From contig CM114271.1 in the NCBI GenBank assembly GCA_050084515.1, positions 13,702,001 through 13,766,000 on the forward strand: 64,000 nt of DNA, in the 5' to 3' direction. A program made the translations under genes and the position numbers. The notes beneath the pieces were generated by a model that was not told where the DNA came from, did not search any database, and saw only the letters and a list, made by a program, of their open reading frames with translations. This document shows positions 32,976-59,599 of this stretch, piece by piece (the first letter of the stretch is position 1; the number at the start of each line of letters is the position of its first letter). The stretch comes from Blasia pusilla (Eukaryota).

Positions 32976-33695
<720 letters not shown>

Positions 33696-36000: not shown

Positions 36001-36081
36001 ATCCTATTGGCTGAAAGTGCCAAGTGTCAAGAGGAGAAGAGTTTGCAAGATGAAGGGGCACTCTCTAATAATAATATGGAT
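36001..36081 (-). repeat. Dispersed repeat, copy 2; possible Helitron 5' end
   Basis: Similar to 34422-34502. Confidence 0.4.
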
Positions 36082-37369: not shown

Positions 37370-37500
37370 AAAATGAGGAAACATGCTCTCTCATGTTACT
37401 TGTGGCCTCAACAGGTCATCCTTGACCTCTTGAGGCTATCCTCCACTACCCGCAAAGGCTCTCTACTAGATCTCGCCGATCGATCCTAAAAGACGTGACA
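37370..37500 (-). mobile_element. Degenerate extra B-terminus of the element-1 family
   Basis: Aligns with 38140-38267 and ends ...CCTAAAAGACGTGACA. Confidence 0.75.
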
Positions 37501-38582
37501 CTCCAAATTGTAACCTACGTGCAGAGGTTATCGGATAATCGTTATCTTCATCAACAAGTCATATGACTGACAAACACCAAAACAAGGAAATTAGCAAAAA
37601 CAATATTCTTGATGCAATGGACCTTGTCATGCGCATACACATCGCTACACAACATACATCGCTGTCACCGAACACACACACAAACACGCACGATCCCATG
37701 CTAACTCATGGCATCCAAACAACGAGACAAGAAGTACCAAATATCTCCAATTAAAATAAGATCCAATCTCTCTCTACACAATCTCACACCATAGCTCTCA
37801 AAGGTGTGCACTCTCTCTCATATCAAACCAAACCCACTCTCCAAATGAGAGGCTTGGGTTACACTCACAAGGCAAGGGACCATAGCTCCGCCGCCTCATG
37901 CCAAGAGGTTCAACAAAGAAAGAATGAGCTCTCAAGCTCTCTCTCCTTGAGATATATACCCCTCCCCTCTCCCAAGCTCTCTCCATGGTAACCTATTCTC
38001 CCAAGTCACCTCCTTGGCTCTTGACCTGATGTAGGAGGTCAAGGGCCACTTACCAAAAATAGAAAGTCGATCATATACTCAAAATGGTACTTACCTAAAA
38101 TAGTAAGTTCCTCAATATGGCTCCAAATGAGCCAAAACGAAGGGGAAACCTGCTCTCTCAGGTTTCTCGGGGCTTCAGCAGGTCATCCTTGACCTCCTAG
38201 GCCTGTCCTCCACTACTCTTGAAGACGTTGTACTAGATCTCACCGATCTATCCTAAAGGACGTGACAGTTGTCGTGCGCATATACATCGTTACACAACAT
38301 ACATCGTTGTCACCGAACACACACACAAACACGCACGATCCCATGCTAACTCATGGCATCCAAACAACGAGACAAGAAGTACCAAATATCTCCAATCGCC
38401 CCCCTAGCTGGTGGTTAGGTCCCTCTAACTCCAGATAGCCATCTATCCCTACCTACCATGACATACATCTCTCGGACGCTAAGAGCAAGAAGGTTGGGTG
38501 CTCATGTGGCCCCATCGTTAGTCGCCTTCCTATCATCCATGTCAGAGAAAAATTTGGGATCGAGACCTACCTAGTATCTCCT

Positions 38583-39900
38583 CTATGTACATCTGGGACA
38601 CATCCATCGTCCTCGAGGAACCCTAGTGAGAGGTGGCGTCAGACATGCCATATGCCAACCTCTCGAACAACCATCACAGACTAGCATCATGGCCGCACCA
38701 CGGGCAGAACCACACAACATACAACGCAAGCCTGCAAGAACTACTGCTAAGCTTGGATCCACTGTACCATCAATGTTAGGAAGGTGACATGGTGCACAAT
38801 TACGCACATGGTCCTTCCATACCATACCATCGCGTCCCTCCAGCAAGAGAACACCGGATGGCAAAACGTCACGCACTCTCAGGATAGTGCGCCCTGCAGT
38901 CACATCCAACATCATCAGTGTCATTTACTACAAGTAGACATAATCTCCTTGATGAAACCTTCGGATAGTTGGTCAATAACCACCACCCCGAATAGTCGCA
39001 TACCTCAACGTATCCCGATATTGCACAATCGCCAAGTTCTCGAACGCCATGGGCATCACTCTTCGAAATAACTCAGCCCTCTGAGAACATGCTCGCACCC
39101 ATACATCTGGGTCATCAAGGTCCAGCACCTCACCAGCATCTCGACAAATGGCCATAGGTAAATCTGGCTCTCGGCCATAAAGTAGCAAGTACGGTGAAAA
39201 AGACGCTAAGGATGCATGCCTGCTGAATCTGTATCCCATCGCCAACCATGGCAACTGGAGGTCCCAATCTCCTAGGTGACCTCTCTACAAGCCATACTTG
39301 CCTAAACCCCTCTCCATCGTCTGCACAACTCTCTCCGCTAATCCATCTGCCTCGGGATGATCTCGCGAAGTCGTGCAGTGGTCGATCAGCGCCTGATCAC
39401 ACAAGGCTTGAAACTCATCGGGAAACTCGGTACCCTGGTCTGTCAACACCTCAGTCGGTGTGCCCTAATGACTCAGCACTCTCTAAAGGAAGGCATAAGC
39501 TACCCCCTCACTCGCTTTGTCAGGAAATGCAACCAACTCGATCCACTTCGAGAAGTGCTTGATCATCACCAACACATAACGATTGTGACGCTCCCTCAAA
39601 GGCAAAGGTCCTGCAAAATTCAAACTCCATCTATACCCTAAGCTCATGATCGGTAATGGATGCAACTGTGGAGTCGGAGCATTGAACGATGCTTGGACCC
39701 GATCACACACCATGCACCTGGCAACAAACTGCTCAACGTCATTGTGCATGCCTCGCCACCAATACTGAATTTGGAGCAGGGTGTACGTCCGCTTCACCCC
39801 AAAGTGACCTAACTCCTTATGGGCATGCTACACTAGTCGTGCTCTCTGCAAAGGATGCGGCACTACGTGTATGCTGCCATCCTCCCAAACCCTCAAAACA
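38583..39900 (-). pseudogene. Element 1 DDE integrase with C-terminal PHD finger (38583-38723)
   Basis: HHCC zinc domain (AH.ELGHFG...CMVC), WSL(D/N)FAGP, SKWIELV, TDQG.EF, SPYLLLYGREP. PHD: CMLC...CDGC...HMAC...WMCPRC. Confidence 0.92.
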
Positions 39901-39971
39901 TATGTCCCCTCCCAACGGAAACGCCTTTGCCCCAGAGGATCTCGATCCGCTCTCTAGCATCCACGGTGCTC

Positions 39972-41672
39972 TTAACGCCCGGTCTGAAGGTACTCCAAGA
40001 CTACTCCATCATCATGAATATCTCTACCACTTGTCGTCTCCTCACTGGCCTCGAGATCCAAGGACTCTCCACTAGACCTCACCATCGAAGTCTCCACACT
40101 CTGGCTCTCCATAGCCAACATGCCTAAATAGGCTGACGCTTGCCATCCTAGCACCGACTCCTCATCACTCTCTCCATGCCATTGAGCTCCAGTTGCATCT
40201 CGTTGACTCAGGCATGGGTTACGACTCAACCCATCTGCATCTTGGTTGAGCGTCCTAGATCTATGTACCACTTGAAAATCATACTCCTGCAACAACAGAG
40301 CCCATCTCGCAAGCTTCCCTTTAAGCTTGTCGGACTCCATCAACCACTTCAGTGGTTGATGGTCAGTGATGATGGTAAAGGGGTTTCCGAATAAGTAACA
40401 CCTGAAATGCGCGATAGCCCACACCGCAGTCAAGCACTCACCCTCATACAAGATGTACTTTGCCTCTGTAGCGTTGTTCGAGCGGCTAGCGTAAGCCACC
40501 ACGAATTCTCTACCCTCATCATCATGTTGGGTGAGCACCGCTCCAAGCCCCAACATGCTCCAATCTTTGTGCAACTGGAAAGGACGCCCCTTGATCGGTC
40601 TCCTCAAGATGGGCGCAGATGTCAACCTGTCCTTGAGCAACTGAAATGCTCGCTCTTGCTCATCCCCCCAGTGCTACTCGTGATCCACCTTGGTCAGCAA
40701 GGTCAGTGGCTTCGCAATCGAACTGAATCTCTTGACGTATTGCCGATAGAAGTTCGCCAATCCCATGAATGCACGAACACGGCTCACATATGTAGGGCGT
40801 GGAATGCGTGAGATAGCCTCTACCTTCGTTTGCTGAACACCAAGGCCCCCTGGGTATATCGTATGACCCAAGTACTCAATGTGGTCGCAGAAGAACTTGC
40901 ACTTGCCTGGATGTAGCTTCAGCCCATGTAATTACAATCGTCAAAACACCTCCTCTAGATGTCGCTCATGCTCCTCAGCCGTGGCGCTAAAGACTACAAT
41001 GTCATCAATATAATACCTAGCAAAATCCAGACCAGCCAAGATCCTATCCATGACCCTCTGAAACTTAGCCGGGGCGTTCTTTAACCCAAATGGTAAGAAC
41101 CACCTCTGGTACAAACAATCCTTCCCGTGAGGATCGATGCCCCAAAATGCCGTCTTCTACATGTCCTCCAATCTGATAGGCAGCTGATGGTTTCCGGCTT
41201 GCAAATCTAATGGACTGAAGACCTTTGCGTGACCAATCGCATCAAAGATTTCCTCAAGGGTGGGCATGGTATACCTATCGGACTTTGTCTGCCGATTGAT
41301 AGGTCGGTAATCCCCACACATCCGCCTATCCGTCTAGTTGCCATGCACATCCTTCTTGGCGGGCATGACAGTGGCAGATGCATACTCCCCATGGGACATC
41401 TCCACTAGTCCTACTCTGACCAAGTCCTGGCTCCTACTTTGAATCAGAGCCCTCTCCATATCACTGTACCTATAGGGTGGTCGGAAGATCGGCGTAACAC
41501 TCGAAAACTCAATGCGGATCCCCGGTCCCTTCAGCGTACCCAAATCCTCCATGCTAAATGCAAAGCAACTCGTGAGGAACTGATGTATCCGGCGCCGCTC
41601 TCCTCCTTTCAACTTAGGGCCCATATCTGGCTCCCAAGTCTCCACCGTGACTACGGTAGGACTCTCTGGCAC
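39972..41672 (-). pseudogene. Element 1 reverse transcriptase and RNase H
   Basis: PIFRPPYRYS, RMCGDYRPIN, LPFGLKNAP and YIDDIVVFS (about 40990-41015); RNase H FQLHKDWS...LGAVLTQ...YEGECL...TDHQPLKWL. Confidence 0.92.
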
Positions 41673-41999
41673 GGGTATCGGTGGTTGCTATGGTGCAACC
41701 CCGTCTCGAACAACAACACTCAGCTGCTCTTCTGCAGCCAACTGCAAACTCTAATCTCCTCCACATGCAGTGCCCGAAACCACGCTCGATGTTGTGGCTA
41801 TCATCTCCTGGCGTACCTGCAAAACATCCCAAGAAGTCCAAGGGTGTCTCTCCCGATCTCCCCTGGTGCATAGATCTCCTCGGGTCTCGCCCCCACCCAC
41901 TGCCTCCACCATCTCGGTAGGCATGGGGCTCACCAAAGCAACCGCTGTGATCTGTTGCAATCTCATACGACGCTGCTCAGCCACTCCCAAGCAGAGGAT

Positions 42000-42935
42000 C
42001 CATGTCAGCAGTTCAGGTCCATCGCGACCCAAGACATGGCGTCGTGATGCCTCTAACACTAACGGTACTGCCGTCACACCTGTGGGAAATCCCATCGCTC
42101 GCTCTCTCTCATCGGCGTTGGGCTCCACCAACTGCTGAACCTGGTCATCCCAAACCAAGCCAGGACCGGCCTCCTTGTATGCATAGGAAGCGGGAAAACT
42201 CACAAACGTGGGCAAGGCTGCCCGCAACATGCCTACCCTATTGACCACAGTGAACGGTGGTCGATCAACGTGCCTCACTGCCTGTGATTGACGACTTGGA
42301 TCTAGAATGGAATCCACTACCAAATGAGAGGGGCGCTCCACTCTCGCATACGCCCTCCGTAACACCGCATGGGGCACCAAGTTGGTCCATCATAGACGCG
42401 GGCGATGGGCTCTAGAATCTACACTCGCCGCATCCAAGAACACTGCTGGGCCGATCCAGGCACGCAGCTAATGAGCACTCGTCACCACCCGTGACCTGGA
42501 GTCTCCTAAGATCGGCACATTCTCCAGAATGTAGGCTGGAGAACGAGACTGGTGCTCCTCCAACTGCCGTAAGACCCTCAACATCTCCCAAAACAACCTG
42601 GACCGAGTGTCAGCCAACCCGCTGCCTCGTTCAGCACTCATTGGCCCTAACATGGCCAACCGGAAATGACCAAATTAATGGTCCCTACCCGCTCTAAGTC
42701 CTGCGTCCCCAATAACAAAATATTCCTCAGTAGGGAACTTTGGTACCCATGTACTACGGACGCAGACAATAAGTCGGGAAAACATAGGCGTAACTGCGCC
42801 ACATATCGTAGTGAGACGCGCCTTGCAACATCATCACTCTCCACATACATGTACTGTTGTACTCGCACTCCTGCCTGCAAAACAGCAGCTACCCAGATGC
42901 TAATCCCTCCAAAGAGATCTAACACTCGGATACCC
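42000..42935 (-). pseudogene. Element 1 C5 cytosine DNA methyltransferase domain (DNMT3-like motif order)
   Basis: Motif I IRVLDLFGGIS; IV NLVISGWPC*; LADTRSRLFWEMLRVL; VI YILENVP; VIII LDAA..SRAHRPRL; IX ERERAMGFP; X RRHVLG. Confidence 0.92.
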
Positions 42936-43274
42936 TCCCCCGGGATACACCACACAATGGGTGTGGTATCCAAGGGTGTCATCGTAGCACTCCTTGCTAC
43001 CTTGGGTTCCTCAGACCCGTCACGCTCCGGTGCAAACGCTTCACTCCACGCCGTCTGCACGTGCTCATCTGCCAATCGTCGAAGCTCCTCAGTCGAGCCC
43101 CACAACAGCACCTCTCCTCCACGGAATGATATAGCTACCATAACACTCCTCTCCATAGAAATGTCAGGAACGGGAGTATCCTCTGCATGGACATGTCCCT
43201 CAATCAAATCACTAGGCCAAGTGATGGCACTGCTAAATGCTGCTAAGGTCGCCATCTCTCCTGGCCGTTGTTCG

Positions 43275-43800
43275 TCATCGCACTGTGAATCGAACGGGTA
43301 ATGAGCTAAGGCACCCATCACTTGACTGCCATCCTGGTCTGTAGGACGCTGACTCCTCCCAGTAATCCAGGGAAAACCCCATCGGGTATAACACTGCTCC
43401 ACGAACCAAGACGTCATATGACTCTGCACCAGTCACTATCGCCTTGGCCCACACCATGGACTCATCTGTAGGATGTCCCAGGAAAATCCTCACCACGACC
43501 TCTTGTCGGGTGATATACTATGTGGTACTCGCTCCACCCAAGGATGTCTGTATCCGGAATGGACAACGCTCCACATCGGCTCTCGTCAAGCCCAATCCTC
43601 TGAATAACGCTTTCCCCAACATCAGGGGTTGCGCTCCTGAATCCAACAAGACGCATTGCGGACTAAAAGCTCTACCTCTAGGACTCACCAAGTGGAAGAC
43701 CTTTCCTCGGTTATCCAACAACACAACACCAGGACAAGCCATGACACGCTCTATCGGGGGTCTAGCGGGCATCTCCGCCATTCTAGCAGCCGCAGCCTGC
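43275..43800 (-). pseudogene. Element 1 aspartic protease
   Basis: CVLLDSGAQPLMLG active site and YDVLV(R/G)G C-terminal motif; frameshifted. Confidence 0.85.
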
Positions 43801-44387
43801 CATGAATCTGACGTGGAAGGTCCGAGCATCGGCTCCAAGGGCAGGTCAATCACCTCCTCTGCAATCACCTTTGAACGTGATGCACGAACTCCAACTCCGC
43901 GCTCACATAGCGACGCGGCCAGCCAAAAAGCCTCGGCGGGCGTACCCCCCAACGTCATAACATCGGAAGCAGAAAATAAAGGAGTGCGGTACACAACGGT
44001 GGCCGCCCCCAACAATGTGCTCGACAGATGCCCCTCCTGAGCATCAACAATAGAAGTCGTCGCACTCGCTTCTCCCATCGCCCTTTGTGCCTGCACACCA
44101 ATAACATCACCACCTCTCAAGGAACTTTGATGAGGACCCATCGATGGGGTCCTCATCGCTTCGGACAACGTGAAAGACTGAGGAAGCCTAGTCTATTTTC
44201 TGGCTTCCCCTCGCTGTGGATCAAACTCTGCGGCTGCTCCACGCGTCACAACTGCGGCGGCCTCCATGTGGGCAACCCCGCACATCCAACCAGGATCCTC
44301 CAGATCTCTAGCTGCTCCATATGATGTCGATGCCACGAATCTGGCATCAGGTAACCTCAATGCCATAGTGGCAATCTGCTCCTGTAG

Positions 44388-45878
44388 CTACTGTATGTGA
44401 GCAGCCATCCCAGCCTCACGTCCGGCGTCTCCCTTGGCGCGTCTAGGTGGTGGTACTCTACCTCCTCCACGGGCAGCTCCACCACCCTGTCGGGCAACTC
44501 CAGCTCCTCGGTCCCCAACGGGACCACCTAGTGCACGATCTCTAGGCCCACCCGGACCGGCTACTCGCTCTGGTGCCCTCTCTGGCCCTCGGTCCGAACG
44601 TAACTCAGGATGTAAACTGAAACACCTGGCGCATGTATGACCATACCTCTGACAATAGTCACACTGATAACCTCCTGGTGCAGCACCATCTCCTCCTCCA
44701 TGCTGAGGCATACGTCCATGACCCTGACGAGTGCAATGGCACTGATGATGGGCTCCACCACATGACCAACAAGTAATAGTAGGCGGCTGCTGTTGAGCCG
44801 CATATGAAGGCGCAGGTCTTTGTGCCACAGGCTCCCGGTATCCTCCCTGAGCTTGTGGTGCCACAGTTGACCTATCTCGGAGTCCACGTTGCTGCACAGG
44901 TGGTGCAGCCAATCGCGATTGCTCTCGCCCAGAACCCATGGTGGCTACGATATCCTCCGCCATGTTGCGCTCAATGTTCTCGGAGGTCCTAAGAACATCT
45001 CTCAACATAGGGGAGGTTTTCATAAGAAGCACCCCCTCCTGCACCCGTGGCCGCAGGGTCTAGTCCAGCATCGCGTACCATGACTGGATAGCCTGAGCCT
45101 CTATCACACCCTGAGTGACGTTGATCAACCGGCGCAAGCGAGTGTAAGCCTCACGTAAACTCTCACCCGGGCGCCTTAGGAAGTTGTGGATGCTCCGCAA
45201 CTTTTCCGTCCGTACCCCTTGGTAGCTCGCCCTCAACTTAACAAAGAACTCAACCACGGGGTTGAACCTGGGACCAACTCGACTAGACGGTGCAACTGCT
45301 CCAATGCGAGTGACCCCTCCTAAAACATCACTAGTGGAAGAGGAAGTAGCCTCTCCTGACTCCTCCTCCTCATCTGGGAATGGCTCCGTCCATGACACAT
45401 AGTGTGGGTCGTAGTAGAGTCGCCATGCCTCAATCTCCTGGGCATATATGTGGGAAAACTCATGGTAATCGTCCATGGGTGCCCCCTCTAAATGCTGGAA
45501 CATACCATTCCATGCTGTAAACGGGTTGAACTCTCTAGAGTTCCTGGCCCGCTGGGAGTCGCACCAACTCCTAAAATCTGTTATGGAATCGTGCAACTCA
45601 ATCATACCTACTGCACTTGAAAACCTACGCGGTCCTCTACCCCGGTCGTCCATCTCGTACGCCCAACTAGTAGGACCACTCAAAATGTGTGGCGATGTGC
45701 TCACAAATTCCTCTACACCCTCCCCCTCATCTGACGATGACACAGAAGGAGGTCGAGGTGGTCCCTGAAGTGAAGACCCTCGGAACCTCACGCCACTCCG
45801 CGTAAAACCTCTAGAGCTACTCTCGGGTTCACCACCTCGCCTCTCAAAGTCCCGAACGGACGCCGTGATGACTCTCAT
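44388..45878 (-). pseudogene. Element 1 gag with two CCHC-type zinc knuckles
   Basis: FRSWCD...FNPFTAW..MFQHLEGAPMDDYHEF; RRPGESLREAYTRLRRL; CWSCGGAHHQCHC and CDYCQRYGHTCARC. Confidence 0.85.
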
Positions 45879-48004
45879 GCCTTTCTCACCCGATCACTCT
45901 TGCCTCGCGAGTTATCCCTCAATCACTCATCCCAAACATGCGGCACTCGATCTACACACTCCCTCTCGAGACATGTAACGTGCGGCAATAAGCGGCGTGG
46001 TGCGGCAAATCGACCAGGCTATCATCTCATTGACAACCTACCCTCAACTCCGGACATCCCACATAGGTCTATGTCCCCTAAGTCACATACATAAATGATA
46101 CTCTCAGCATCCACACACCCAATATCCCCAAATAAACTACCCAAATCCCAGAATCCCTCACACGTATAGGGTAAAGGACCAGGATGGGTAACCTGAACAC
46201 ATGTCGATGTCGCTCCTCAGCAGCTGCGAATCTCGACCCCAACTCGGTCGTGGAGACAACTCCTCCAATCAGCAAGTCATACTCCTCCCGTACTGACGTT
46301 GCTCAATAATCCTCGATAGACGGTGCGGTTCTAGCGGAACGGTGCGGCGTTGCAAGCGGCACGGAACGGCTACAAACGGCACGACCCTCGATGATGGGAT
46401 GCGGCACTCGGCGGCATACCCTCCTCAATCAAAAATAAACCCACACTTTGCTCCACAATGTCGGAGCGGCTCTGCAATCAAGACGGTGCGGTGTGCGGCC
46501 ACGAGCGGCACGGCGCGGCAATCAGCGGCGCGTTGCGGCTACGGGCGTCACGGCACGGTACCCGATCGTCGTTGAGCGGCTACCAATCACAACATAGCAG
46601 GAGGAAATCAAAACTCAAACACTATAACATGAGGTCATATGCCATCACACGTTGATGATGGTGGCGGCCAAAGCAAAGTACGTGATGGCGACGCAAGTCC
46701 GAGAATCAACGAACGTTGTGGAAGACCCTCCACTCCGTAACGGCGGCAATGGCAACCAAGGGTGGACAAGGGACGGTGGACCATTGAAGATGACGGTTGA
46801 CCATTGATGGTGATGGTTGACCATTGATGATGAAAGTTGACCGTTGACGGTTGACAGTGACCATGACGGCGACGGCCGCCGCCGGTGTGGTGGCTGATTT
46901 AGGGTTTGCACAATTTAACCCTAAAAATCGCCTAGCAATGGCAATTTTTGCAAGATTGACCATACCTTTTTGCTCCCAACTCCAAATTGCACATTTTTTG
47001 TTGCACAGCGTCCACAGCTTGACGATCTACGCCAGTATCAAAAAAATATTTGGAATTGAACATTCCAATAAAAACTGACAAGGACTGTCGTAAAGCCCAA
47101 TGTCTCTTTCTTCTACCCAACATTCCTCCCAACAAAAATGTAAAACTTGTAAAAATGCAAATCAGCAAGCAACATGGTGCTCCCAAAAGCATCGGCATGG
47201 GGTAACCCGCCCCCATACTCAATCCCTATCAGAAATTGGGCAGCGCTTCCGCACGCCACTCTTCCACACGAAAAATCGGCAAATGCAAGGAACAATCCAA
47301 GCAACCCTTGCTCCGATGAGCACTCCCATGAGCCGTTGAACGGGGAACACGGTCCCCAAGCTGCAAAAACAGCGAGTGACCAGCGAGCTCCCCCATGAAG
47401 CTCTCTCACTCTCTCATTCTCTAATTTTGCATTCTCTCTTTCTCTCATTCTCTCTTTGTAAAGTAAGATCCAATCTCTCTCTACACAATCTCACACCATA
47501 GCTCTCAAAGGTGTGCACTCTCTCTCATATCAAACCAAACCCACTCTCCTAATGAGAAGCTTGGGTTACACTCACAAGGCAAGGGAACATAGTTCCGCCG
47601 CCTCATGCCAAGAAGTTCAACAAAGAAAGAATGAGCTCTCAAGCTCTCTCTCCTTGGGATATATACCCCTCCCCTCTCCCAAGCTCTCTCCATGGTAACC
47701 TATTCTCCCAAGTCACCTCCTTGGTTTTTGACCTGATGTAGGAGGTCAAGGGCCAGTTACCAAAAATAGAAAGTCGATCACATACTCAAAATAGTACTTA
47801 TCTAAAATAGTAAGTTCCTCAATATAGCTCCAAATGAGCCAAAACGAAGGCCTCAACAAGTCATCCTTGACCTCCTTGTCTTCCACTACTCTTGAAGACG
47901 CTCTACTAGATCTCACCGATCTATCCTAAAGGACGTGACAACCTATTTCCAACCTTATCCGACATCTCAAGACGAAGTTAAGCCGATACAAATTTTTTAC
48001 CCTC

Positions 48005-48245
48005 TATGTCATCGACCTAGTAGAACTCTATCTCTAGGCTAACTAAGATGTGACAATCTTTGTGCTCATACACATCGCCACATAATCAACATCATTGGTC
48101 ACATCTACACACCACACAAGATTAATCTTCCTAACACACACATAGATCCATACATAAAAAAAATATTTACCCATATATATCGAGACCACACTACCGCCCC
48201 CTAGTTGGTAGTTGAGTTCCCTTAACTCTAAATAGTAGACATCAC
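48005..48245 (-). mobile_element. Older third-subfamily relic (B end, 2 nt, A, PPT) into which element 1 appears to be nested
   Basis: GTGACA (48050-48055) + AT + A-like CTTTGTGCTCATACACATCG..., followed by CCGCCCCCTAGTTGGT, as at 38397. Confidence 0.6.
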
Positions 48246-48479
48246 ATCTATCCAATATAATCCACTATTCTATACATATATAGCACCCTCGGTGTCGTCA
48301 TACCCGCCATATCTCCCAGCACATACTCATTTGTGAGTCCATCTCCTCTATCTCTACCTAGAGATATCAATGTATCCGGATCTCATCCTACATTGCAACT
48401 CTACAGCTACCCACCATATTGATCCCTCTAAAGAGATCTAACACTTTTGCACCCTCCTCCAGATACTACCATACAATAG

Positions 48480-49230
48480 ATGTGATATCCGAAGATGTCA
48501 AGTCTCCACTCCAAGAGCATGATGTTGCTCGATATGGGAGTGTAGGGAGAATCCGTGTAGATAGAGGTGAGTTGAATGTGGAGGAAGCACGAGAGTTCTT
48601 CAATAAGTATGGACTCCAGTTGAGATTAACAACCTCTATGAATCCGGAGGCAAAGGGCAAGAGCGCAAGGGGACATCCGCCAATCATTCAAGCATTGGTA
48701 AAGGTGTGTGGAGACCATTATGCTCATTGGCCTAGATTGCTTCCATTTGCTTCATGGGCATATACGATCACTCACAACAGCGTTACAAGGTTCATGCCTA
48801 CATAGTTGATGCCAGGTCAAAAGCCAATAATGCCAGCAGAAGGAGATATTCCCACTTGGATGGATTTACCGTGGGAGGACGGGCTCGATAGGGAAGAGCT
48901 CATAGCACTTTGAATGTAGCATCTAGAGCGGCGTGAAGTAGATATCGCAGAAGTATTAGTCAAAAGGAAGGAAGCAAGGTTGAAAAATAAGGAACGCTTC
49001 GACAAAAGTCATCGACTTGAGAAGGAGCCTATAAGAGAAGGAGATTGGGTCTTGGTGCACGACAACAACCTCGACAACCAGCATAGTACTATTAAAAAAT
49101 GTGCACGTCATTGGTTTGGTCCATATATTATAGCCTTTTTTTTTTACAATGCCACTTAGAAATTACAAGAGCTAGATATCACAATTCTCAAGTTGCCCAT
49201 TGTAGAAAAAAGGGTGAATATTTTCCGTAG
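48480..49230 (+). mobile_element. Integrase fragment of a different Gypsy lineage, followed by a PPT-like tract and probable 3' LTR start at 49362
   Basis: RYG..GRIRVDRGEL...TTSMNPEAKGKSARGH...WPRLLPFA.WA...GQKPIMP...GDWVLV...WFGPY (GPY/F); GGAGGAGGTGAA|TGTCGT at 49350-49367. Confidence 0.85.
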
Positions 49231-50704
49231 ATGTGAGGGATTTTTGATTTTGACGAATCAGATCAATCTTTCTAGAGATACAGTAAAAATAAGTCTGAAT
49301 AAGATAGCAAGAAGTCTTGACCTGCATATACCGGAGGATGTGCAGATTTGGAGGAGGTGAATGTCGTATAGTAAAATCACCTACCATATAAACTCCTCTC
49401 TCATTAAGTGTTAGAGAGAGTTTTATTAGTATGAAGTAAATTAGCTTAGGAAAAGAAAATTTTCATATTTAAACCTCTTTATGGTGTCTCTTTTATGCGG
49501 GCCCAATTTTAGGAAAAGAGGTAATAAATTAGACATGAGATTATAAAAATAAAGTAGGGGATTGGTGAATTAATGAAAGAAAAGCAAAAGTACTCTTGGT
49601 TTGTGGCTAGGGTAGTTGGGGTAATTTGGAAGATATGAGGTGAGTACAGGATTTGTCATGACCATATGGATTATGTCGTAAAGTATAGTGTGCTAGTAGA
49701 GGCCATTCCTTATGTAGGACCGTAGTGGCTTGGTAGAGATGCGGTTTCATACATAGGGTTGGAGGTTACTCAGTTGGGGGTGACTTTCCCAGTAGGTTGG
49801 AGGATATAAGGTGGAGTGCACTCAAAGAACAATCAATTCTTTGAGTTGAGCCTGTTGCGTTAGGAGTTAGCCTTGGTAGTGAGTAGAGCTCTTGGCTATG
49901 GTGTTTCCCGCAAGCTTCGACATAGATTCTCCCATCGTGGAGTGGGTTTGGCTCGATTGTATGTGATTGTATACGTGTTTTATGACAGTAGGTCTTTCAG
50001 GGATTTCACTCAAAGAACTGGAGTAGATCGATGGTAGCTTCGATTGTAGATCAGTAGGATCTGGTTAGGGCTGATTGTGTACTCAGCCGTGGATGTTCGT
50101 GGCTTGTGGGCTATTCTGCCTGGAGGACGCTTAACTGCTGAGTTCTTAACTATGCAAGTGTACACACTGTTGTAGCTCATTTGGTGCTGTTCGGAGAGTT
50201 GTTAGGCGCTTTATGCATCTAAGGTTTTTGGTTGATGTACCTCTAGCGCATAGTACGGTGTAGCCTCTCCATGCAGGTGATATTTTCAGGTGCTGCGAGT
50301 TCGACTAGCACGTCATCGACCCGCGGCGGAGTAGCTATTGCGTTAGAATTGTGTGGTGGGTTTTGTGGAGTCAGGGGGCACCACGTTTGGTGGATTGTGT
50401 TACCTTGATTTCCATTTGCGATTGGAGGGTTGTCGTTGGACTTCCTGTGTTTGGATCCCCTCCATCGGTGCTTCTTGCTTGCGCGCCCATTGTTAGGGTT
50501 GACGCTGATTTCTAGAGTAGTGTTACTCCTGTGTGCTACCGATAGTGAGGCTGGAGTGATGACCAGTAGACCGTGGGAGGCTTCTTGTGGTGATGACATG
50601 TTAGGTTGCCTACATCCATAGCTAGTAGAGCTAGAATAGTATAGCGACATCGACGTCACTTGGTTATTTGGTGGTGGTAATTTGGTGGTGGTGCGGCATC
50701 GGCG

Positions 50705-52200
50705 TTGGTCATCACGGAGCTGTCGGGTGGTCTGGTTGGGGACCATGGTGCGGACAATGGTGGTTTCACACGGAGTGGATTTAGGTATCGGCTACCTTTT
50801 CCACTTCCGACGGTTGATGAAGAGGAGGACGAGGGTGTTCCAAACACCGAGTCTTCTACGTTGTTATCGAGTGTTGCAGCTCCATTGATTTGGGACATGG
50901 ACGGTGGATATGGGGCCATGAAGGGCCCACGACGATACTCGGGTGCAGTGGGCACCATTGAGTCGGAGGACTTCATGCAGGAGTTTGATACGTGGTGTGA
51001 TATGCAGATGTTATGAACGCACGTTGTTTACACCCTTCTTGGCTTGGAAGGGGTTGTTTCAAAGACTTGTAAGGACCACCCATGGATGATTACCATGAGT
51101 TTAGGAAGGACCATGTTGCTGAGATTGAGGCATGGAGACAATATTGGTCTCCAGGCTATGTGTCTATCACCCATGGTGGTATTGGTAGTAGTGCTCTTAC
51201 TATGCCAACCAGCCCGACGTTGAGTGGTACGAGTACGAGCCGGAGTGGGGGTACTAGTAGAGGTACTAGTGCCCCACCATCGTTCAGCCCGGTTGCAGAG
51301 TTCTTCAAGAGGTTGAAGAAGAACTATCAGGGAGTGAAGACGGAGAAGTTGAGGAATCTTCAGAATTTGAGCGAAAGACGGTGAGAGTCTTCGTGAGGCA
51401 TACACTCGTATCGACGCTTGATTTCGATTACCAGGGTGTGACCGAGGATCAGCGATCGATTTTGGTATGGGATCTTGGACAGAGATTTGCGCCGTAGGGT
51501 ACGTGATGCTACTCTTATGAGTGATGATTCACCCACATTGACCCATATGTTTGCTCTATCTCGAGAAGATTGAGCTTAACATGGTGAAGGAGAGAGTGGT
51601 GACATCTGATTCAAGAGGGGATACAACTACTACTTCTCGTGTTCGGCAGCCCATCTCACAGTCTCATAGTAGTGGTGGTGGTAGTAGTAGTGGGAGTCGT
51701 GGGGGGTACACACGACCTCAGTCAGGTCCTAGAGGGATACTTGCGCAGAGACCATTGCCTTCATTTGCTGCCCCGCAACAAGGAAAGTCATGTTGGATAT
51801 GTGGAGGTGATCATGTTAGGAAGTTTTGTCCCCAAGAGGATGGGAGACGGACTTTGGAGGATGGGCTTCAGTTGGCCCCAACTTAGTGTGATCATTGCGG
51901 GAGACCAGGTCATCCTCGAGAGCGCTTTGCCTTGATCTTCATCCAGAGTTGAGATCAAGCCGCGGCCGTGGTGGAGTAGCTCCGAGAGGCTGAGGTGGTA
52001 GAGGTGGTAGAGGTGGACCAGTGGTTGGAGAGCCTAAGGTGGCTACCCCTACCACTACGATAGAGTCAGCTATGGCTGCCAGGATTGAGCAGTTGGAGTA
52101 GAAGTTGGCTACTATGGCTGGTATCCAGCATAGATCATGTTCGGGAGCAAGGGCTTCCACCTCTTATGGAGGGGATGATCTCTCTTATATGGCGAGTGCA
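50705..52200 (+). pseudogene. Element 2 gag with two zinc knuckles
   Basis: RRYSGAVGTIE..DFMQEFDTWCD; MDDYHEF; YQGVKTEKLR; CWICGGDHVRKFC and CDHCGRPGH. Confidence 0.85.
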
Positions 52201-52651
52201 AAGATGAAAGTTGAGGCATCATCGGTGCAAGAACAGAGGAGCCACTCGGCGCCGAGCCACGTGGTGCTCTTGTGGAGTTGGACCCACAGAGGGGTGAGGG
52301 GGAGGCAGGCTAGGCTTCCCGGTCATTCTTGTTGTCTGAGGTGCTTAGGACTCCATCCATGGTTCCTACGCAGCCTATTGAGCCGACAGTGGGGACTGAG
52401 GCATCTACATCGCGTGTAGTAGACACGGATGCATCATCCAGTGCAATATTGCGGATGGCAACTTCAATATTGGGATCCCCATTGTTTTCGGCCATGGAGC
52501 TAATGGCTTTAGGAGTTGACTTAGCTCCTGTATTTCAGCTAGCAGCCACGTTGTGTGAACGTGGGGGTGTTACTGCTACACGTGTTGAGGTGGATGAGGG
52601 TGTTGCGGTGGAGCGACCCTCTATGTCGAGTAGCATTAAGTACCGTGCTAC

Positions 52652-53150
52652 TTGGCGGCAGCGGCGGCGAAGATGGATGCATTACCAGCCCGGCCAGCCA
52701 TTGATCGTGAGAGGCTTACACCTGGTGTATGTATGTTGGACAACCGGAGTGGGATATTCCGATTGGTGAGTCCTACAGGACAGGTGTATAGACCAGATAG
52801 AGTCTTATTAGACTCTGGTGCCCAACCTTTGATGTTGGGAAAGGCGGCATGTATTGGTTTGGGTATTTGGAGGTCAGAGCTTGAGCCTTGCCCATTCCGA
52901 TTCAAACATCACTTGGAGGAGCCAATGATAGATCTCAATTCATGACACGGGAGAAGTTTTTTTCTGATTGAGACCAGATCATGCGATCGATAGCTCCCGA
53001 TTAGGAGTATCTCGGTAGTCTCATCACCGAGTCGTATGATGTACTAGTTGGAGGAGCGATTGTATCCGATGGGTTTTCAGATGGATTCTTCGGATCGAGA
53101 GGCGTCTTATAGACCTGGTTGGCAGTCCGGGATGGACGTATGAGCCAAGT
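52652..53150 (+). pseudogene. Element 2 aspartic protease
   Basis: RVLLDSGAQPLMLG; ESYDVLVGGA. Confidence 0.88.
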
Positions 53151-53528
53151 TCTGTGAGATTTATTTGTGGGGCTCGACCAGAGGGTCTTCCCCAACAAAG
53201 ATGTTAGCATCCGTGGTCTGGTTTCAAAGTGGAGTAGTCACTTGGCTAGAGACTTTTTGGAGGGTAATATTTCTGCTATGGGTTCTCATGCGCTTGAGGA
53301 GGTAGAGGAGGTCCCTATTCTTGCAGATGGCATCCTCATTGTTGGATGTGCCACTTTGGAGTTCAGCGGTGCACTACGGCAGAGGCGATCGCCTAGTGTA
53401 GGAGGCTTGGTGTGAGGTGTTATACCTCACGAGGAAGAGGAGGCCCCACGGCGGACTCCTACTTCTGGTCCATTAGGTTATCCCTTTGGATACTACACCC
53501 ATTGTATGGCAAGTATCCGCCGGAGGGC

Positions 53529-54460
53529 ATTTGTGTGTTAGATCTCTTTGGTGGGATTAGCACTGGTTTGGTCTTAGATGTTGCAGGCCCGTATTCTGTG
53601 GGGAGATACGTGTATGTGGGAGCGAGATGAGACGGCCCGAGAGTCTCATCCCGACATATTGGTCAGTTGATGCGGAGATATCCTGAGTTGTTGCCGCCAT
53701 CAGCTATTCGTGGGTACCAGCGTGCTTTACCATCACACATTGCATTGTTGGGGGCGCAGGACCTTGAGAGGGTTGGTCCTGTGGATTTGGTGATTGCTGG
53801 ATGGCCATGTCAGGGTCATACACGTGCTGGTTGTGGTGAGGGATTACATGACCCTAGGTCTTGTTTGTTTTGGGAGATGTTACGGGTGTTACGACATCTT
53901 CAGGTTCATCAGGCACGTGCTCTAGCTTTCATTGTGGAGAATGTTCCATTGTTGGGTGACACTCGGACCCGGATGAGGGCGAGTGTTCATGAGGTGCGGT
54001 CTTGGATTGGACCAGCGGTGTTGTTGGATGCAGCCCGAGTTGGCTCGCCTGCACATTGTCCACGCTTGTGGTGGACAAACTTGTTGCCCAGGGAGGTTCT
54101 ACGTCGAGCATATGATGCAGTGCAGCGGGATCCTTGCCTTACCGTGGATAGTATCTTGGATACTGGGCGACTTTCTCAGGTGGTGAGGGTTATTGATCGC
54201 TCACCCATGGCAGTGGTGAACCGTGTGGGCCAGCCTAGGATGGTACTACCCACATTTGTGAGTTTTCCCTCGTCACATGCCTACAGAGAAGGTGGTCCGG
54301 GGCTTGTATGGGATTCTCATGTACGACAGTTGGTGGAGCCTAACGCTGATGAGAGAGAGCGTGCGATGGGATTTGCTACTGGTGTGACACCGGTTACTTC
54401 CATTTCTGAGGCTTCACGACGTCATGTGTTGGGTCAGGCCATGGACCTGAATTGTTTAAG
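53529..54460 (+). pseudogene. Element 2 C5 cytosine DNA methyltransferase domain
   Basis: Motif I ICVLDLFGGISTG; IV GPVDLVIAGWPCQG (catalytic PC); GLHDPRSCLFWEMLRVL; VI FIVENVP; VIII LDAARVGSPAHCPRLWWTNL; IX ERERAMGF; X RRHVLGQAM. Frameshifts after motif I. Confidence 0.95.
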
Positions 54461-54728
54461 TTGGATTTTGAGTCTTGGTATGGCCGAGCAGCGTCGACTT
54501 CGGACTTTGTCTGTGGGTCTTCCACCCCTTGTAATGAGCTCGATGGCTACCGGGACGGTAGAGGCATCGGCTGGGGGCGAGGAGAGTAGTATTTTGCATC
54601 CTTGGAGTAAATGGGATGTAATGGCTGGGCATGTGGAGTTGGTTGCTCATGCTGGTGGAGGAGTTATTTGCTCAGATGATGGTGTAGCTAAGGGTGTACC
54701 ATTTCGTGAGGGGGTTGCGTAGCAGCCA

Positions 54729-56507
54729 ATGGCATCGTCCTCTCCCTCTAGTGTGCCAGTGGAGGAGACTTGGGAGCCATTACTTGGGCCCAAGCTTACG
54801 GGAGGTGAGAAACGACGCTTGACACAGTTCCTACGTGCTTATAGGAGTTGTTTTGCCTTTACCATGAAGGAGTTGGGTTCTCTGGTTGGACCGAGTATAC
54901 GGATTGATTTGGCTAGTGATACGCCAATCTTCTGTCGTCCCTACCGATATAGTGATATGGAGAGGGACCTGATTCAGAGTAGGACGTTGGACCTTTTGGA
55001 GGCTGGATTAGTGGAGTTGTCGCATGAAGAGTATGCATTAGCCACTGTCATGCGTGCTAAAAAGGATATGCATGGCAACTACACGAATAGGCGGATGTGT
55101 GGAGATTACCGTCCTATCAATCGGCAAACCAAGGCCGATAGGTATGCCATGCCTATACCTGAGGAGATCTTTGATGTGGTGGGACAGGAAAAGATTTTCA
55201 CTACTTTGGATCTTCGGGCAGGATACCATCAATTGCCGATTCGGGAGAGTGACAAGGCCAAGACAACATTTTGGGGTGTCAACTCTCATGGCAAGGATTG
55301 TTTGTACCAGTGGAAATTCTTATCCTTTGGGTTGAAGAATGCACCTACCGAGTTTCAGAGAGTTATGGACAGGATCCTAGCAGGGTTGGATTTTGTTCGG
55401 TGTTACATTGATGATATCTTGGTGTTTAGTAACACGGTGGAGGAGCATCAGATACATTTGCAGATGGTGTTTGAGCGGTTGAAAGCTCATGGTCTACGTT
55501 TGCATCCAGGAAAGTGTAAGTTCTTCCATGAGGATGTTGAGTACTTGGGTCATGTGATCTATCCAGGTGGTTTAGGAGTTCAGCAAGCAAAGGTGGAGGC
55601 TATTGCACTTATTCCGCGTCCGGTAGATGTGAGTAGAGTTCGGGCATTCATGGGATTGGCGAACTACTATCGGAGGTATGTGAAGGGATTTAGTGCTATG
55701 GCAAAGCCTTTGAACCAATTGCTGAAATCAGATCAAGAGTGGCACTGGGGAGATGATCAGGAGAGAGCTTTTGTGGAGCTTAAGGCCTACTTGGTGGCGG
55801 CGCTAATCTTGAGGAGACCTATTAGAGGGCGCCCATTTTAGTTACACACTGATTAGAGTAGGTTAGGACTTGGAGCCGTGTTGACACAACATGATGATGA
55901 GCACATGGAGTTTGTGGTGGCCTATGCAAGTCGTTCGAATAATGCAGCGGAGTCGCGCTATAGTTCATATGAGGGAGAGTGCTTAGCAGTAGTGTGGGTT
56001 GTGGCACACTTTAGGTGTTACTTGTTTGGCACACAGTTTACCCTTGTTTCTGATCACCAGCCGCTCAAGTGGTTGATGGAGTCTGACAAGGTTACAGGGA
56101 AGCTTGCACGGTGGGCTCTTATCTTACAGGAGTATGACTTCCAAGTGGTACATAGACCTGGAGTTGGCAACCTTGATGCTGATGGGTTGAGTAGGAACCC
56201 ATGTACTAGCCAAGAGGATACAACTGGGGCTAGATGGCATGGCGAGGTTGATGAGGAGATGGTGCCAGGTTGGCATGCATCCGCCTTTTTATGTTGGTTA
56301 GGGGTGGACTCTAGTATGGAGGATCACATGATATCTTACTCTAGTGAGAGAGTAGATGGCCAGCCTTCAGATCCTAAGGTTGGAAATGGTGGTACGGATC
56401 AGCGTGATATTCATTATGATGCGTTGGTGTTGGAGTTCCTACGGACCAGTAGGGTGCCAGGCATAGTGAGTGCCAAGGAGCGAGACCGTGTTCTTCAGCG
56501 TGCTTAG
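54729..56507 (+). pseudogene. Element 2 reverse transcriptase and RNase H
   Basis: RMCGDYRPINRQT, LDLRAGYHQL, FGLKNAP, YIDDILVFS, YLGHVI; RNase H YASRSNN.AE..Y...EGECLA, SDHQPLKWL, ADGLSR. Confidence 0.95.
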
Positions 56508-56540
56508 AGGTATCGATTAGAGGGAACACATACTCTCCAC

Positions 56541-57837
56541 GTGTGGGAGGATGGTAGAGTACGAGTAGTGCCACATTTGGCTCAGAGAGACCGCATTGTG
56601 CGACATGCGCATGAGGAGTTGGGACATTTTTGGGTAAAGCGTAAGTATAGCTTACTCCTTGGCCAGTATTGGTGGCGTGGCATGCATACTCAGGTGCAGC
56701 AATTGGTGTTACATTGTATGGTTTGTGACCAGGTGAGGGCATCATTCAATGCCCCTACACCACAATTACACCCCTTTCCTATTATGGGGTTGGGTTACCG
56801 TTGGAGTGTGGACTTTGCGGGACCGTTACCGTTGACTGTACGACATCATCGATATGTGTTGGTGATGGTGGAGCACTTCTCCAAGTGGATTGAGTTGGTG
56901 GCATTACCGGACAAGGCAAGTGAGGGAACGGCGTATGCGTTTCTTGATAGAGTGCTTAGTCATTTTGGTGCACCGGTGAAGTGTCGACCGACCGAGTCTG
57001 AGTTTCAAGGTGAGTTTCAGGTCTTGTGTGACAAGGCGTTGATTGATCATCGGACCACGTCTCGAGATCATCCAGGCGGATGGTTTGGCTGAGCGTGTGA
57101 TTCAGATGAAGTGAAGAGGGCATTGGGCAAGTATGGCCTCTGAAGGGCATCTTGAGACAGGATATTCAGTTGCCATGGTTAGCCATGGGGTATAGGTTCA
57201 GTCACCAAGCATCCTTGGCTTCCTTCTCACCTTATAATCTGTTATACGGCCGAGATCCAGACTTGCCAGCAGCAATTCGTCGGGAGTCTAGTGAGGTGGT
57301 GAACCTTGATGACCCAGAGATGTGGATGAGAGTGCGTTCTCAGCGGGCAGAGCTCTTTCGGAGAGTTATGCCAACATCCTTTGAGAATCTTGCCATTGCT
57401 CAACACAGGGATACATTGCGGTATGCATTCGGGGTGGAGGTTATCGACCATCGATTCGTAGGTTCCATGTGGGGGACTATGTCTATTTGCAGCAGATTGC
57501 ACCGACAACGTTGGATGTGACGGCAGGCCGTACTATTTTACAAGTGCGAGAGGTGTTAGCTTCTGGAGTTCTCATGTTGGAGGGTCGTGATGGAGTTGTT
57601 TGGAAGGACCATGTGCGTAATTGTGCGTCATGTCATCTTCCAAATGTGGATGGTACTGTTGACCCAAGCTTAGCCATGATCCGTGCTAGCTTGAGGTGCA
57701 TGTTGTGTGGGTCTGCTGGTAACGCTGCTCGTATGTTGGTGTGTGATCGGTGTTCTAGGGGTTGGCACATGATGTGTTTGACTCCACGTATGGATGTTGT
57801 TCCTACAGGAAGGTGGGTTTGTCCTCGATGTACTTAG
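56541..57837 (+). pseudogene. Element 2 DDE integrase with C-terminal PHD finger (57697-57837)
   Basis: AHEELGH...CMVC; WSVDFAGPL; EHFSKWIELV; PHD CMLC..CDRC..HMMC..WVCPRC (C4HC3). Confidence 0.95.
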
Positions 57838-59227
57838 GAGAGGTAGATGACTTGATCTTTGCATGATATGGATTACAGATGTGCGACTAACGATGGGGCA
57901 ACCTAGCACCCGGACTTTTGATTCGAGCACCCAAGAAGGTGTATAGCATGTAGTAGATGTATAGGCCTACCTGGGAGTTAGAGGGACCTAACCGCTTGAT
58001 TAGGGGGCGAGTTGTGGTACACTTGTGTTTGTGGATGCTCTCGTCTATGTTATGTATGTATGTGAGTATGGTATATCAGCGATGTATGTTGTATGACGAT
58101 GTGGATTTGCACGACAGCTGTCATGACCATACGGATTATGTCGTAGATTATAGTGTGCTAGTAGAGGCCATTCCTTATGTAGGACCGTAGTGGCTAGGTA
58201 GAGATGCGGTTTCATTCATAGGGTTGGGGGTTACTCAGTTGGGGGTGACTTTCCCAATAGGCCCGCTCTTAGTTTGGAGGATATAGTGTGGAGACCCAAA
58301 GAACAGTCAGTTCTTTGAGTTGAGCCTCTTGCGTTGGGAGTTAGCCTTTGTAGTGAGTAGAGCTCTTGGCTATGGTGTTTCCCGCAAGCTTCGACCTAGA
58401 TTCTCCCATCGTGGAGTGGGTTTGGCTCGATTGTATGTGATTGTATACGTGTTTTATGACAATAGGTCTTTCACGGATTTTAGTTGTGGTACACTTGTGT
58501 TTGTGGATGCTCTCGTCTATGTTATGTATGTATGTGAGTATGGTATATCAGCGATGTATGTTGTATGACGATGTGGATTCACACGACAGATTATATTTTG
58601 GAAGAAATAAGAGATAATCTACTTATGTCAAAATATTATTGGCTAAGCCTTGAGAGGAAGCCATGTGGCACAAGATAAGATTAGTCATATTTTATATTTT
58701 TGTGGATCCCTTGTGAGTATATAAAGAGGAGGGACCTTCAAGGGTTTATCACCTTCTATTTCATTCTTGAGTTATCGTATCATTCTTGAGTGGATGGCAT
58801 TGGGCTTGCTTGCTCTTCCAATGAGAATGGATTACCCCTCTTGAGAGAATAACTTGACCATGATTTATTCTTTGAGAGGATTTTAGAGTGTGATATGTGT
58901 AGAGTTGAGAGACTTGTTATCTTAGGGAAGTTTAGTCATATTAGAGATAGTGGATGGTTTTGGCTTGTTAGTTTCCCAATGAGAATGGATTACTCCTCTT
59001 GGGAGAGCAACTCCAGCAAAATCCATTCTTAAGGTAAGTAGAGGATGCCCGTCAAGTATGGATAGGGGTGGAGCACGAGTTGTACATGATTTTCCTTTCC
59101 TTAACGCGTAGCACGTGAAGATTCTCCTCGTAGATAGACACTACTTTACTTGTTATCTAGTTTACCACTTTGGAGAGGCATTCATGAACCAGTTCATGCA
59201 GTCTCCAACTCTGGTGATTCTTCCTAT

Positions 59228-59579
59228 TGTCACGTTTGGGAGGACATAGGATTGTAAATTGTATGTTCTTATATAGCAATCCATGGATGTTAATATGCCT
59301 GCTTATATAGGATTTAACACTAGTTGTGTTATTTTTCTTGTCTACAAGCATAAAGTAGTTTACAGGGACTTTATAGTTAGGAGTTTTGGTGTTCGATGTT
59401 ATACAGAGGTGATCTCCTCGGCACTACCATTCGTGATTCTTACCGTGAGAGAATACAGGGTTTATATAATAATTTTGTATTGAAAAAGGGGAACTTCTTA
59501 TAGAGTGCACCTTGCATCAACCCCGTTTTCCGCAGCTAGAAGGTATGCTCTTACTCAAAGAAAATCTCTCGACACGATA
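59228..59579 (+). mobile_element. Isolated LTR (about 352 bp) of the tRNA-primed Gypsy family at the window end, in opposite orientation
   Basis: TGTCACG...GACACGATA; aligns with the reverse complement of 63659-64000. No TSD (CCTAT / ATGTC). Confidence 0.85.
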
Positions 59580-59599
59580 ATGTCTCAAGCACTTGCTGT

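Follow-up and report, generated by a model that had tools for sequence, protein, structure and literature searches.

Split terminal repeats in integrase-bearing Ty3/Gypsy retrotransposons of a streptophyte lineage, as found in a 64,000-nucleotide stretch of Blasia pusilla DNA

This study analyzed a stretch of 64,000 nucleotides (nt) of Blasia pusilla DNA (assembly GCA_050084515.1, contig CM114271.1, positions 13,702,001-13,766,000 of the forward strand), hereafter called the window, in which an earlier note had described two Gypsy retrotransposons with an unusual arrangement of terminal repeats. The repeats of the window were located by repeat finding, the four boundary regions were read directly, and repeat identities were taken from gapped blastn. 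Both elements share the order target-site duplication (TSD), B, internal region, purine tract, A, 2 nt, B, A, TSD, where A and B denote the two parts of the split repeat and nn the 2-nt spacer. The order and the coordinates of the earlier note were reproduced, and the features are as follows (positions are those of the window).

49650-49653, plus strand: element 2, left TSD GATT, read directly and the same as 58589-58592
49654-50007, plus strand: element 2, B1, which begins TGTCATG
49803-49809, plus strand: element 2, TATA-like GATATAA in B1
49837-49846, plus strand: element 2, segment TTCTTTGAGT of B1, partner of the primer site
50008-58009, plus strand: element 2, internal region
50008-50017, plus strand: element 2, primer-binding site ACTCAAAGAA, fully complementary to 49837-49846
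58001-58009, plus strand: element 2, purine tract TAGGGGGCG, adjoining A1
58010-58116, plus strand: element 2, A1, which ends CACGACA
58117-58118, plus strand: element 2, spacer GC within the palindrome-like CACGACA-GC-TGTCATG, the proposed attachment (att) site
58119-58481, plus strand: element 2, B2
58482-58588, plus strand: element 2, A2, which ends CACGACA
58589-58592, plus strand: element 2, right TSD GATT
47944-47941, minus strand: element 1, TSD AGGT on the B1 side
47940-47459, minus strand: element 1, B1, containing a TATA box and CATTCTTTCTTTG, partner of the primer site
47446-47458, minus strand: element 1, primer-binding site CAAAGAGAGAATG, which complements, with 1 mismatch, a stretch of B lying past the TATA box
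38407-38397, minus strand: element 1, purine tract CTAGGGGGGCG
38396-38270, minus strand: element 1, A1
38269-38268, minus strand: element 1, spacer AC
38267-37752, minus strand: element 1, B2
37751-37625, minus strand: element 1, A2
37624-37621, minus strand: element 1, TSD AGGT on the A2 side (ACCT on the plus strand)

Both elements have TG..CA termini and an exact 4-bp TSD. They start with TGTCAYG and end with CACGACA, except that the A2 end of element 1 reads CATGACA. The two copies of A are 98.1% identical in element 2 and 96.9% in element 1, and the two copies of B are 91.0% and 89.5% identical, respectively. Between the elements, the internal regions are approximately 75% alike (inverted arms I1-I7, 73-76%) and the reverse transcriptases (RTs) are 70% identical; the elements are therefore diverged relatives and not copies of each other, in line with the independence that the earlier note had claimed for them. 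They are separate, old and dead insertions of related families, both with stop codons. Matches to the junction motif CACGACA-NN-TGTCAYG without mismatches are confined, in the window, to the two A1/B2 junctions; with up to two mismatches, 3 matches were found against 0.56 expected, and 4 of 100 shuffled sequences reached 3.

RNA reads were taken from two raw runs labelled as the same species; they derive mostly from paralogues 90-99% alike, and their depth was counted in bins of 314 nt. In both runs, reads (7 and 32) link position 49646 to 58593 through 7 other letters. These reads represent a host-sequence paralogue that lacks the entire block from B1 to A2, and the inserted unit is thus bounded within a few bases. 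The TG..CA ends, the 4-bp TSD and this empty site together bear out the claim that insertion took place in the permuted form. The target sequence of element 2 (49400-49653 and 58593-58800) is itself repeated and transcribed, and RNA reads cover it. Joints between B1 and B2 in DNA contigs reflected ambiguous mapping between the two B copies and were left unused.

The coding content of both elements consists of pol remnants, which in element 2 carry in-frame stops.

53631-57837, plus strand: element 2, pol remnants (Pfam, open reading frames)
53631-54722, plus strand: element 2, DNA methyltransferase (DNMT; DNA_methylase, PF00145; Pfam)
54723-55841, plus strand: element 2, RT (RVT_1; Pfam)
55857-56507, plus strand: element 2, RNase H (RT_RNaseH; Pfam)
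56508-57092, plus strand: element 2, integrase (Integrase_H2C2 and rve; Pfam)
57385-57837, plus strand: element 2, PHD finger (PF00628; Pfam)
38583-42820, minus strand: element 1, pol remnants with DNMT, RT, RNase H, integrase and PHD (tblastn; Pfam RT_RNaseH)

Intact relatives encode protease, DNMT, RT, RNase H, integrase and PHD in this order (Pfam, with rve and H2C2 both present). The Gypsy pol order was found by tblastn in more than 60 loci and in both window elements, and the DNMT lies upstream of the RT in the loci of the clade. On the C-terminal side of the integrase, a PHD finger (PF00628) takes the place of a chromodomain. When the window RT piece is aligned with 14 family proteins, the D,D35E triad is legible; together with the rve and H2C2 domains, it upholds the assignment of a DDE integrase. 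The elements thus have the domain order, the TG..CA ends and the short TSD of Ty3/Gypsy retrotransposons, but not their two complete, identical long terminal repeats (LTRs). The tyrosine recombinase domain PF00589 was found in 0 of the 120 listed homologous proteins, and not in the proteins P0034, P0029, P0015 and P0044. Ten open reading frame pieces on the plus strand of element 2 (50409-53627) were scanned as well; nine had no Pfam match and one had a sub-threshold chance match, and no recombinase was detected among them.

For a census of the family, metagenome contigs were scanned with the RT alignment, which yielded 80 loci, and each locus was scored by self-comparison and by mapping A, B and the two internal edges. 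Duplicates were merged before 3' ends were counted (L026 with L027, L036 with L038, L039 with L040, L033 with L034, and L059 with L061), and the count of 5' ends also merged L002 with L004. The 35 unique 3' ends comprised 22 with A-nn-B-A (20 metagenome loci and the two window elements, termed full; L010, with a shortened second A, is included), 2 with A-nn-B running to the contig end, 1 that was rearranged and 10 with A only. All 21 unique 5' ends read flank, B, primer site, and none (0/21) carried A, A-nn-B or B-A-nn-B. In the sub-lineage L019/L020/L030/L068 a second A was not found, and its layout was left unscored. The tabulation of repeat order and TSDs across copies that the earlier note had proposed was thereby run on the metagenome loci: copies with conventional LTRs at both ends do not predominate, and the split form stands in 22 unique elements.

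Two loci had at first resembled the split layout. In L059, a 919-bp repeat starting TGTCGTAACCCTAGCC lies inside the RT region, flanked by 57-bp direct repeats, and bears no relation to the A and B repeats; its copies lie at 5893-6804 and 10868-11784 of L059, likewise in L061, and at 4773-5638 of L020. The reading of L059/L061 as a split layout (B of 919 bp, A of 57 bp) was rejected for this unrelated insertion, and both loci were dropped from the queries.

Among the full elements with both ends available (n = 9), the TSD was perfect in 4, had one mismatch in 4 and did not match in 1; among the A-only elements with both ends (n = 4), it was perfect in 3 and had one mismatch in 1, and none failed to match. 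Overall, 12 of the 13 elements that could be tested have a 4-bp TSD (7 of them perfect, 5 with one mismatch), whereas a 4-bp match by chance has a probability of 1 in 256. The spacer in ...ACA/TGT... measured exactly 2 nt in all 25 unique junctions (GC in 10, AC in 8, AT in 4, GT in 2 and GA in 1). At the right ends of lineage II (e.g. L031, L033 and L038; the lineages are described below), the last 30 nt of A hold two or three GTCACGACA-like words, which may be a putative array of integrase binding sites. These TSDs bear on a DIRS-like integration by a tyrosine recombinase acting in cis or in trans, a reading suggested by the repeat order, which matches exactly that of the split direct repeats in PAT, Ngaro and TOC1 as described in the portions of the literature consulted (PMC8969392, PMC5890265). 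DIRS elements, however, are described there as lacking TSDs (PMC8969392), and the window family combines its TSDs with TG..CA ends, a conserved DDE integrase and the negative recombinase results given above. We consider such an integration very improbable, and the recombinase that the earlier note had named as evidence to the contrary is missing from the 120 listed homologues and the scanned pieces of element 2.

In a tree of the RT/RNase H region, 63 DNMT-bearing rows were separated by one branch (Shimodaira-Hasegawa-like approximate likelihood ratio test, SH-aLRT, 98) from 9 rows without DNMT or PHD, among which L080 has an ordinary LTR pair of 796 bp. The DNMT clade consists of two deep lineages (support 100 each) whose RTs are approximately 40% identical, and the split layout occurs in both. 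A-only rows are dispersed among the split rows (9 changes for 12 rows). A second, quick tree placed Marchantia proteins, the Closterium DNMT proteins and two Klebsormidium proteins (P0038 and P0067) in one clade (SH-aLRT 99), with chromodomain elements as its sister group. The closest proteins among the 120 listed are from Marchantia and Calypogeia (80-83%), followed by Sphagnum, Closterium, Klebsormidium and Chara. The window elements thus belong to a streptophyte Ty3/Gypsy lineage within a clade that holds Klebsormidium Gypsy elements. The normal integrated form of this lineage is B-internal-A-nn-B-A; the split layout is a family trait and not damage, and the B-internal-A copies are dead side products, not a lineage of their own.

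The internal edges of the repeats show which parts reverse transcription would treat as one LTR. A G-rich purine tract adjoins A wherever the boundary is legible, in most elements of both lineages (it is illegible in L051 and L052), as the earlier note had reported for the two window elements. The primer site adjoins B. Read by these two edges, the LTR made by reverse transcription should be A-nn-B, with ends that lack TG and CA, as had been proposed. The same edges, legible in so many copies, speak against conventional LTR elements that were damaged or misassembled, with A lost from the 5' LTR and duplicated before the 3' LTR. Only the oddity of the layout favors that account; the layout recurs in 22 unique elements of two lineages with RTs approximately 40% identical and in independent assemblies, and an empty-site paralogue exists. 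This recurrence across lineages refutes damage or misassembly, to which we assign next to no probability, and the concern that the window elements were assembly artefacts was answered by the 20 unique loci from other assemblies and by the agreeing empty-site reads.

The primer site lies directly after B1, where the earlier note had put it; its type had to be corrected. It was considered as a site for a tRNA, and this was rejected because the sequence is complementary to a segment within B instead. In 18 of 20 B1 ends, the sequence after B1 complements a stretch of B located 25-35 nt past the TATA box (at least 10 nt, at most 1 mismatch), and L002, L004 and L044 pair perfectly over at least 16 nt. 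Compensatory pairs separate the lineages (ACTCAAAGAA/TTCTTTGAGT, AATTCTAGAAAAACTA/TAGTTTTTCTAGAATT and AATTTTAGAAAA/TTTTCTAAAATT). By chance, one 10-mer with one mismatch would be expected in approximately one element in five, but runs of 13-17 nt at a homologous place would not. From its sequence, the primer site looks like a self-priming design of the Tf1 type. Such a design predicts that transcription starts in B, so that U3 would comprise A, the spacer and the first part of B, and R-U5 the rest of B.

The RNA reads covered the whole element on the sense strand in both runs. Depth dropped approximately four-fold from bin 57878-58191 to bin 58192-58505, which lies within B2 (111 to 31 and 174 to 38 in the two runs); the drop agrees with the predicted termination in B2. 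Three further joints were seen in the RNA reads of the two runs: 50982-57446, which passes over 6463 nt (6 and 7 reads); 56367-57369, where 9 letters stand in place of 1001 nt (16 and 25 reads); and 58433-58149, which jumps back by 285 nt within B2 (4 and 4 reads). They may represent deleted or rearranged paralogues or processing products.

The joint between B2 and A2 (B|A) was read against the family B end and A start in the 22 unique elements, and it was exact in 14 and altered in 8. One nucleotide was added in 3 (L024, L031 and L077), and 1 to 3 nt were missing in 4 (L038, L049, L040 and L062); in L038 and L049 the missing letters are AT, at an AT|AT overlap. The joint of L050 is complex, with a 15-nt filler and 5 nt of A missing. 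The sister elements L044 and L049 differ, the former having an exact joint and the latter a joint shortened by 2 nt, which indicates that the joint is not inherited. In contrast to the templated att spacer, whose length is constant, the B|A joint varies in length. The pattern of joints fits what end joining or a template jump, occurring anew at each insertion, would leave.

Normal strand transfers cannot make a B|A joint. Dimer, rolling-circle, alternative-primer and read-through complementary DNA (cDNA) schemes were considered and rejected, none of them giving a B|A joint. An LTR of the form B-A with a damaged 5' LTR and an LTR consisting of B alone were dropped for the same reason.

The earlier note had suggested that a linear AB-internal-AB cDNA is ligated into a free two-LTR circle, which the integrase then opens at either of its internal att sites. 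Such a circle would account for the B|A joint with its small insertions and deletions and for the TG..CA ends and the TSD, and the variable, non-inherited joint does fit end joining. Of the by-products predicted by the note, B-internal-A, expected from a one-LTR variant of the circle, is present at 10 of 35 unique 3' ends, with a perfect TSD in 3 of 4 testable cases, but B-A-B-internal-A is absent (0/21 unique 5' ends). The two att sites of the circle are identical over hundreds of bases, and B-A-nn-B-internal-A should accordingly be as common as the observed form, which was seen 22 times. If the alternative form had collapsed by recombination between its B copies, B-internal-A should outnumber the full form, whereas the counts are 10 and 22. 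The missing permutation makes the process one-sided: either the upstream att site alone is in use, or the intermediate is something other than a free circle. The variable joints fit the joining step of the proposal, its free circle and either-site opening fare poorly, and both circle and cleavage are deductions; we regard the complete route as quite unlikely.

One-sidedness would come naturally if the reverse transcriptase alone produced the joint, its plus strand jumping from the end of U5 to the start of the upstream LTR and copying A, after which the integrase would trim the nearest CA/TG sites. The joints with one added nucleotide and the losses at AT|AT microhomology (L024, L031, L077, L038 and L049) fit template jumping, and an inherently one-sided jump fits the 0/21 alternative forms. 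The end of B and the start of A, however, share no homology by which a jump could be guided, and removal of the 110-180 bp stub of upstream A-nn would call for cleavage far from a DNA end. We consider this account a serious rival, though an unlikely one.

The explanation that we favor is that an A-nn-B cDNA is opened by the integrase at the CA-nn-TG of its upstream LTR and that its outer ends are joined imprecisely, which would yield the permuted insert. We put its probability at roughly 0.55. Transcription would start in B1 and end in B2, and the 5' end of the RNA would prime minus-strand synthesis as in Tf1. The resulting cDNA would be A-nn-B-internal-A-nn-B, and its predicted outer ends (AGTTG.., ATTGG.. 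and ATACATG..; ..ATTTC, ..TTTA and ..AAT) lack TG and CA and would not be integrase substrates. Instead, the integrase may recognize the palindrome-like CA-nn-TG within the LTR, which resembles a ready-made LTR-LTR circle junction, and would open it in the upstream LTR only. The U5 end of B and the U3 start of A would be joined imprecisely, before or after strand transfer, and the outcome would be a permuted insert flanked by a 4-bp duplication. The inserted form would correspond to the predicted cDNA after circular permutation, with the break at the CA-nn-TG in the upstream copy of the LTR. The one-sidedness could, speculatively, have its basis in the upstream LTR becoming double-stranded long before plus-strand synthesis extends to the downstream LTR, in which case the integrase might assemble on the upstream site and cut it first. 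B-internal-A copies could arise when both sites are cut, from a one-LTR form, by later recombination between A copies or, in part, by assembly collapse; these routes are indistinguishable by sequence.

Several points weigh against this explanation. The A-nn-B cDNA, the att cleavage and the end joining are all deduced, and no circle, linear cDNA or cleavage product was observed. The preference for the upstream att site is a supposition devised to fit the 0/21 count. The transcript start and the poly(A) site are predictions only, set against RNA bins of 314 nt and reads mainly from paralogues. The copies are old (repeat identity 79-98%), and some of the joint differences could have arisen by mutation after insertion. 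Deletions, or collapse during assembly of the short-read metagenome contigs, could account for part of the A-only class. Host diversity is limited, with most loci coming from a few related metagenomes.

A wider reading would extend the favored explanation to the whole clade. An ancient integrase-bearing clade would have moved its att site from the LTR ends to the inside, every productive insertion would need end joining and the opening of the upstream CA-nn-TG, and the provirus would be a circular permutation; split repeats would then be a general footprint of junction-type integration, whichever enzyme performs it. We offer this tentatively, as a possibility that we hold with some doubt.

The window also contains a third, degraded relative on the minus strand, next to element 1.

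32976-37500, minus strand: element 3, degraded relative (repeat comparison)
37500-37368, minus strand: element 3, B positions 1-136
33694-37367, minus strand: element 3, insertion of 3.67 kb splitting B
33693-33324, minus strand: element 3, B positions 136-428
33416-33510, minus strand: element 3, (CT)n run between the TATA box and the self-primer segment
33101-32976, minus strand: element 3, purine tract and A

The interior of element 3 is mostly deleted, no B-A follows its A, and its flanks (GGAG and TGAT) are unlike; it was left unscored. At approximately 48040-48162 on the minus strand lies an older A-AT-B junction of another relative, and element 1 is inserted approximately 100 bp into the B of this junction. 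The A tail of this junction recurs in inverted orientation at 32565-32664, with 83% complementarity. The region around element 1 is a nest of the split-repeat family. Farther away, stretches of 7934-9664 resemble (71-80%) a segment from the gag side of element 1, 44871-46259, on the same strand; no pol domains were found in them, and they are probably a fragment of another relative. Two pairs of inverted repeats, 59238-59580 with 63658-64000 (343 nt, 81%, 4 kb between the arms) and 15839-15905 with 16325-16391 (67 nt, 96%, 419 nt between the arms), may belong to other transposons.

According to textbooks, LTR retrotransposons insert as linear cDNA by way of both ends and have a full LTR on each side. 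The clade described here breaks the rule of a full LTR at each end while keeping a DDE integrase, TG..CA termini and a TSD. It thus offers a natural system for asking whether an integrase can act from an internal site that resembles a circle junction and how the split-repeat layout of the DIRS order arises. Programs that search for LTRs as a pair of identical terminal repeats would misplace or miss such elements. In the consulted text of the plant LTR survey behind REXdb (PMC6317226), the terms PHD, methyltransferase, Marchantia and Klebsormidium do not occur and the lineage is not mentioned, yet its paralogues are transcribed in the two recent RNA runs. The combination of a DNMT and a PHD finger in pol connects the elements to chromatin targeting and self-methylation, a link raised by the 2018 paper discussed next (PMC5890265).

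The split layout in a Gypsy element, which the earlier note had supposed to be undescribed, has in fact been reported. A literature search, covering main texts and not the supplements of PMC5890265 or of the plant LTR survey, returned one figure legend, that of Fig. 4c of de Mendoza et al. 2018 (PMC5890265), according to which KnitGypsy-Dnmt3 of Klebsormidium nitens has a DIRS-type repeat structure with Gypsy domains. The main text of that paper, as distinct from its supplements, contains neither 'target site' nor 'circular' and is silent on TSD, att site, primer site and mechanism. KnitGypsy-Dnmt3 resembles the window elements, as far as the published main text describes it, in having a Dnmt3-type C5 methyltransferase within a Gypsy pol and DIRS-like split repeats. 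Two Klebsormidium Gypsy proteins, possible copies of KnitGypsy-Dnmt3, also fall in the RT/RNase H clade of the window elements (SH-aLRT 99). The window elements differ from KnitGypsy-Dnmt3 in their host, a liverwort-like plant, and the RT identity to the Klebsormidium proteins is 38-46%. The elements thus belong to a published but barely described kind, and the layout itself is not new; new here are the TSD with TG..CA ends, the invariant 2-nt spacer, the putative self-priming, the variable B|A joint, the missing alternative permutation and the finding that the clade occurs in land plants.

Split direct repeats are treated in the consulted part of the literature as a hallmark of the DIRS order, whose elements make no TSD (PMC8969392), and TOC1 is counted among the non-autonomous DIRS elements (PMC9940879). 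The order A1-internal-B1-A2-B2 of PAT, Ngaro and TOC1 is the order of the window elements with the letters swapped, and in both cases one of two permutations is seen. These systems use a tyrosine recombinase and, on the accounts consulted, make no TSD, whereas the window elements have a DDE integrase, TG..CA termini and a 4-bp TSD.

For Tf1/Sushi and Tcn1, self-priming has been reported in the consulted part of the plant LTR survey (PMC6317226). The likeness lies in the primer site of the window elements, which adjoins U5 and complements the predicted 5' end of their own transcript; Tf1/sushi and Tcn1 differ in having conventional identical LTRs and a chromodomain, as against split repeats, a PHD finger and a DNMT.

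Retroviral integrases, those of foamy virus and HIV-1, cleave the palindromic LTR-LTR junction, according to the portions consulted (PMC1180852, PMC1905944, PMC4372172). The window family resembles this junction in its CA-spacer-TG palindrome, at which an internal cut by the integrase would regenerate integration-competent ends. In retroviruses, as described there, the palindrome arises only after circularization and serves a side route. In the window family, by contrast, the palindrome is present in every LTR with a 2-nt spacer, and it appears to be the sole usable att site.

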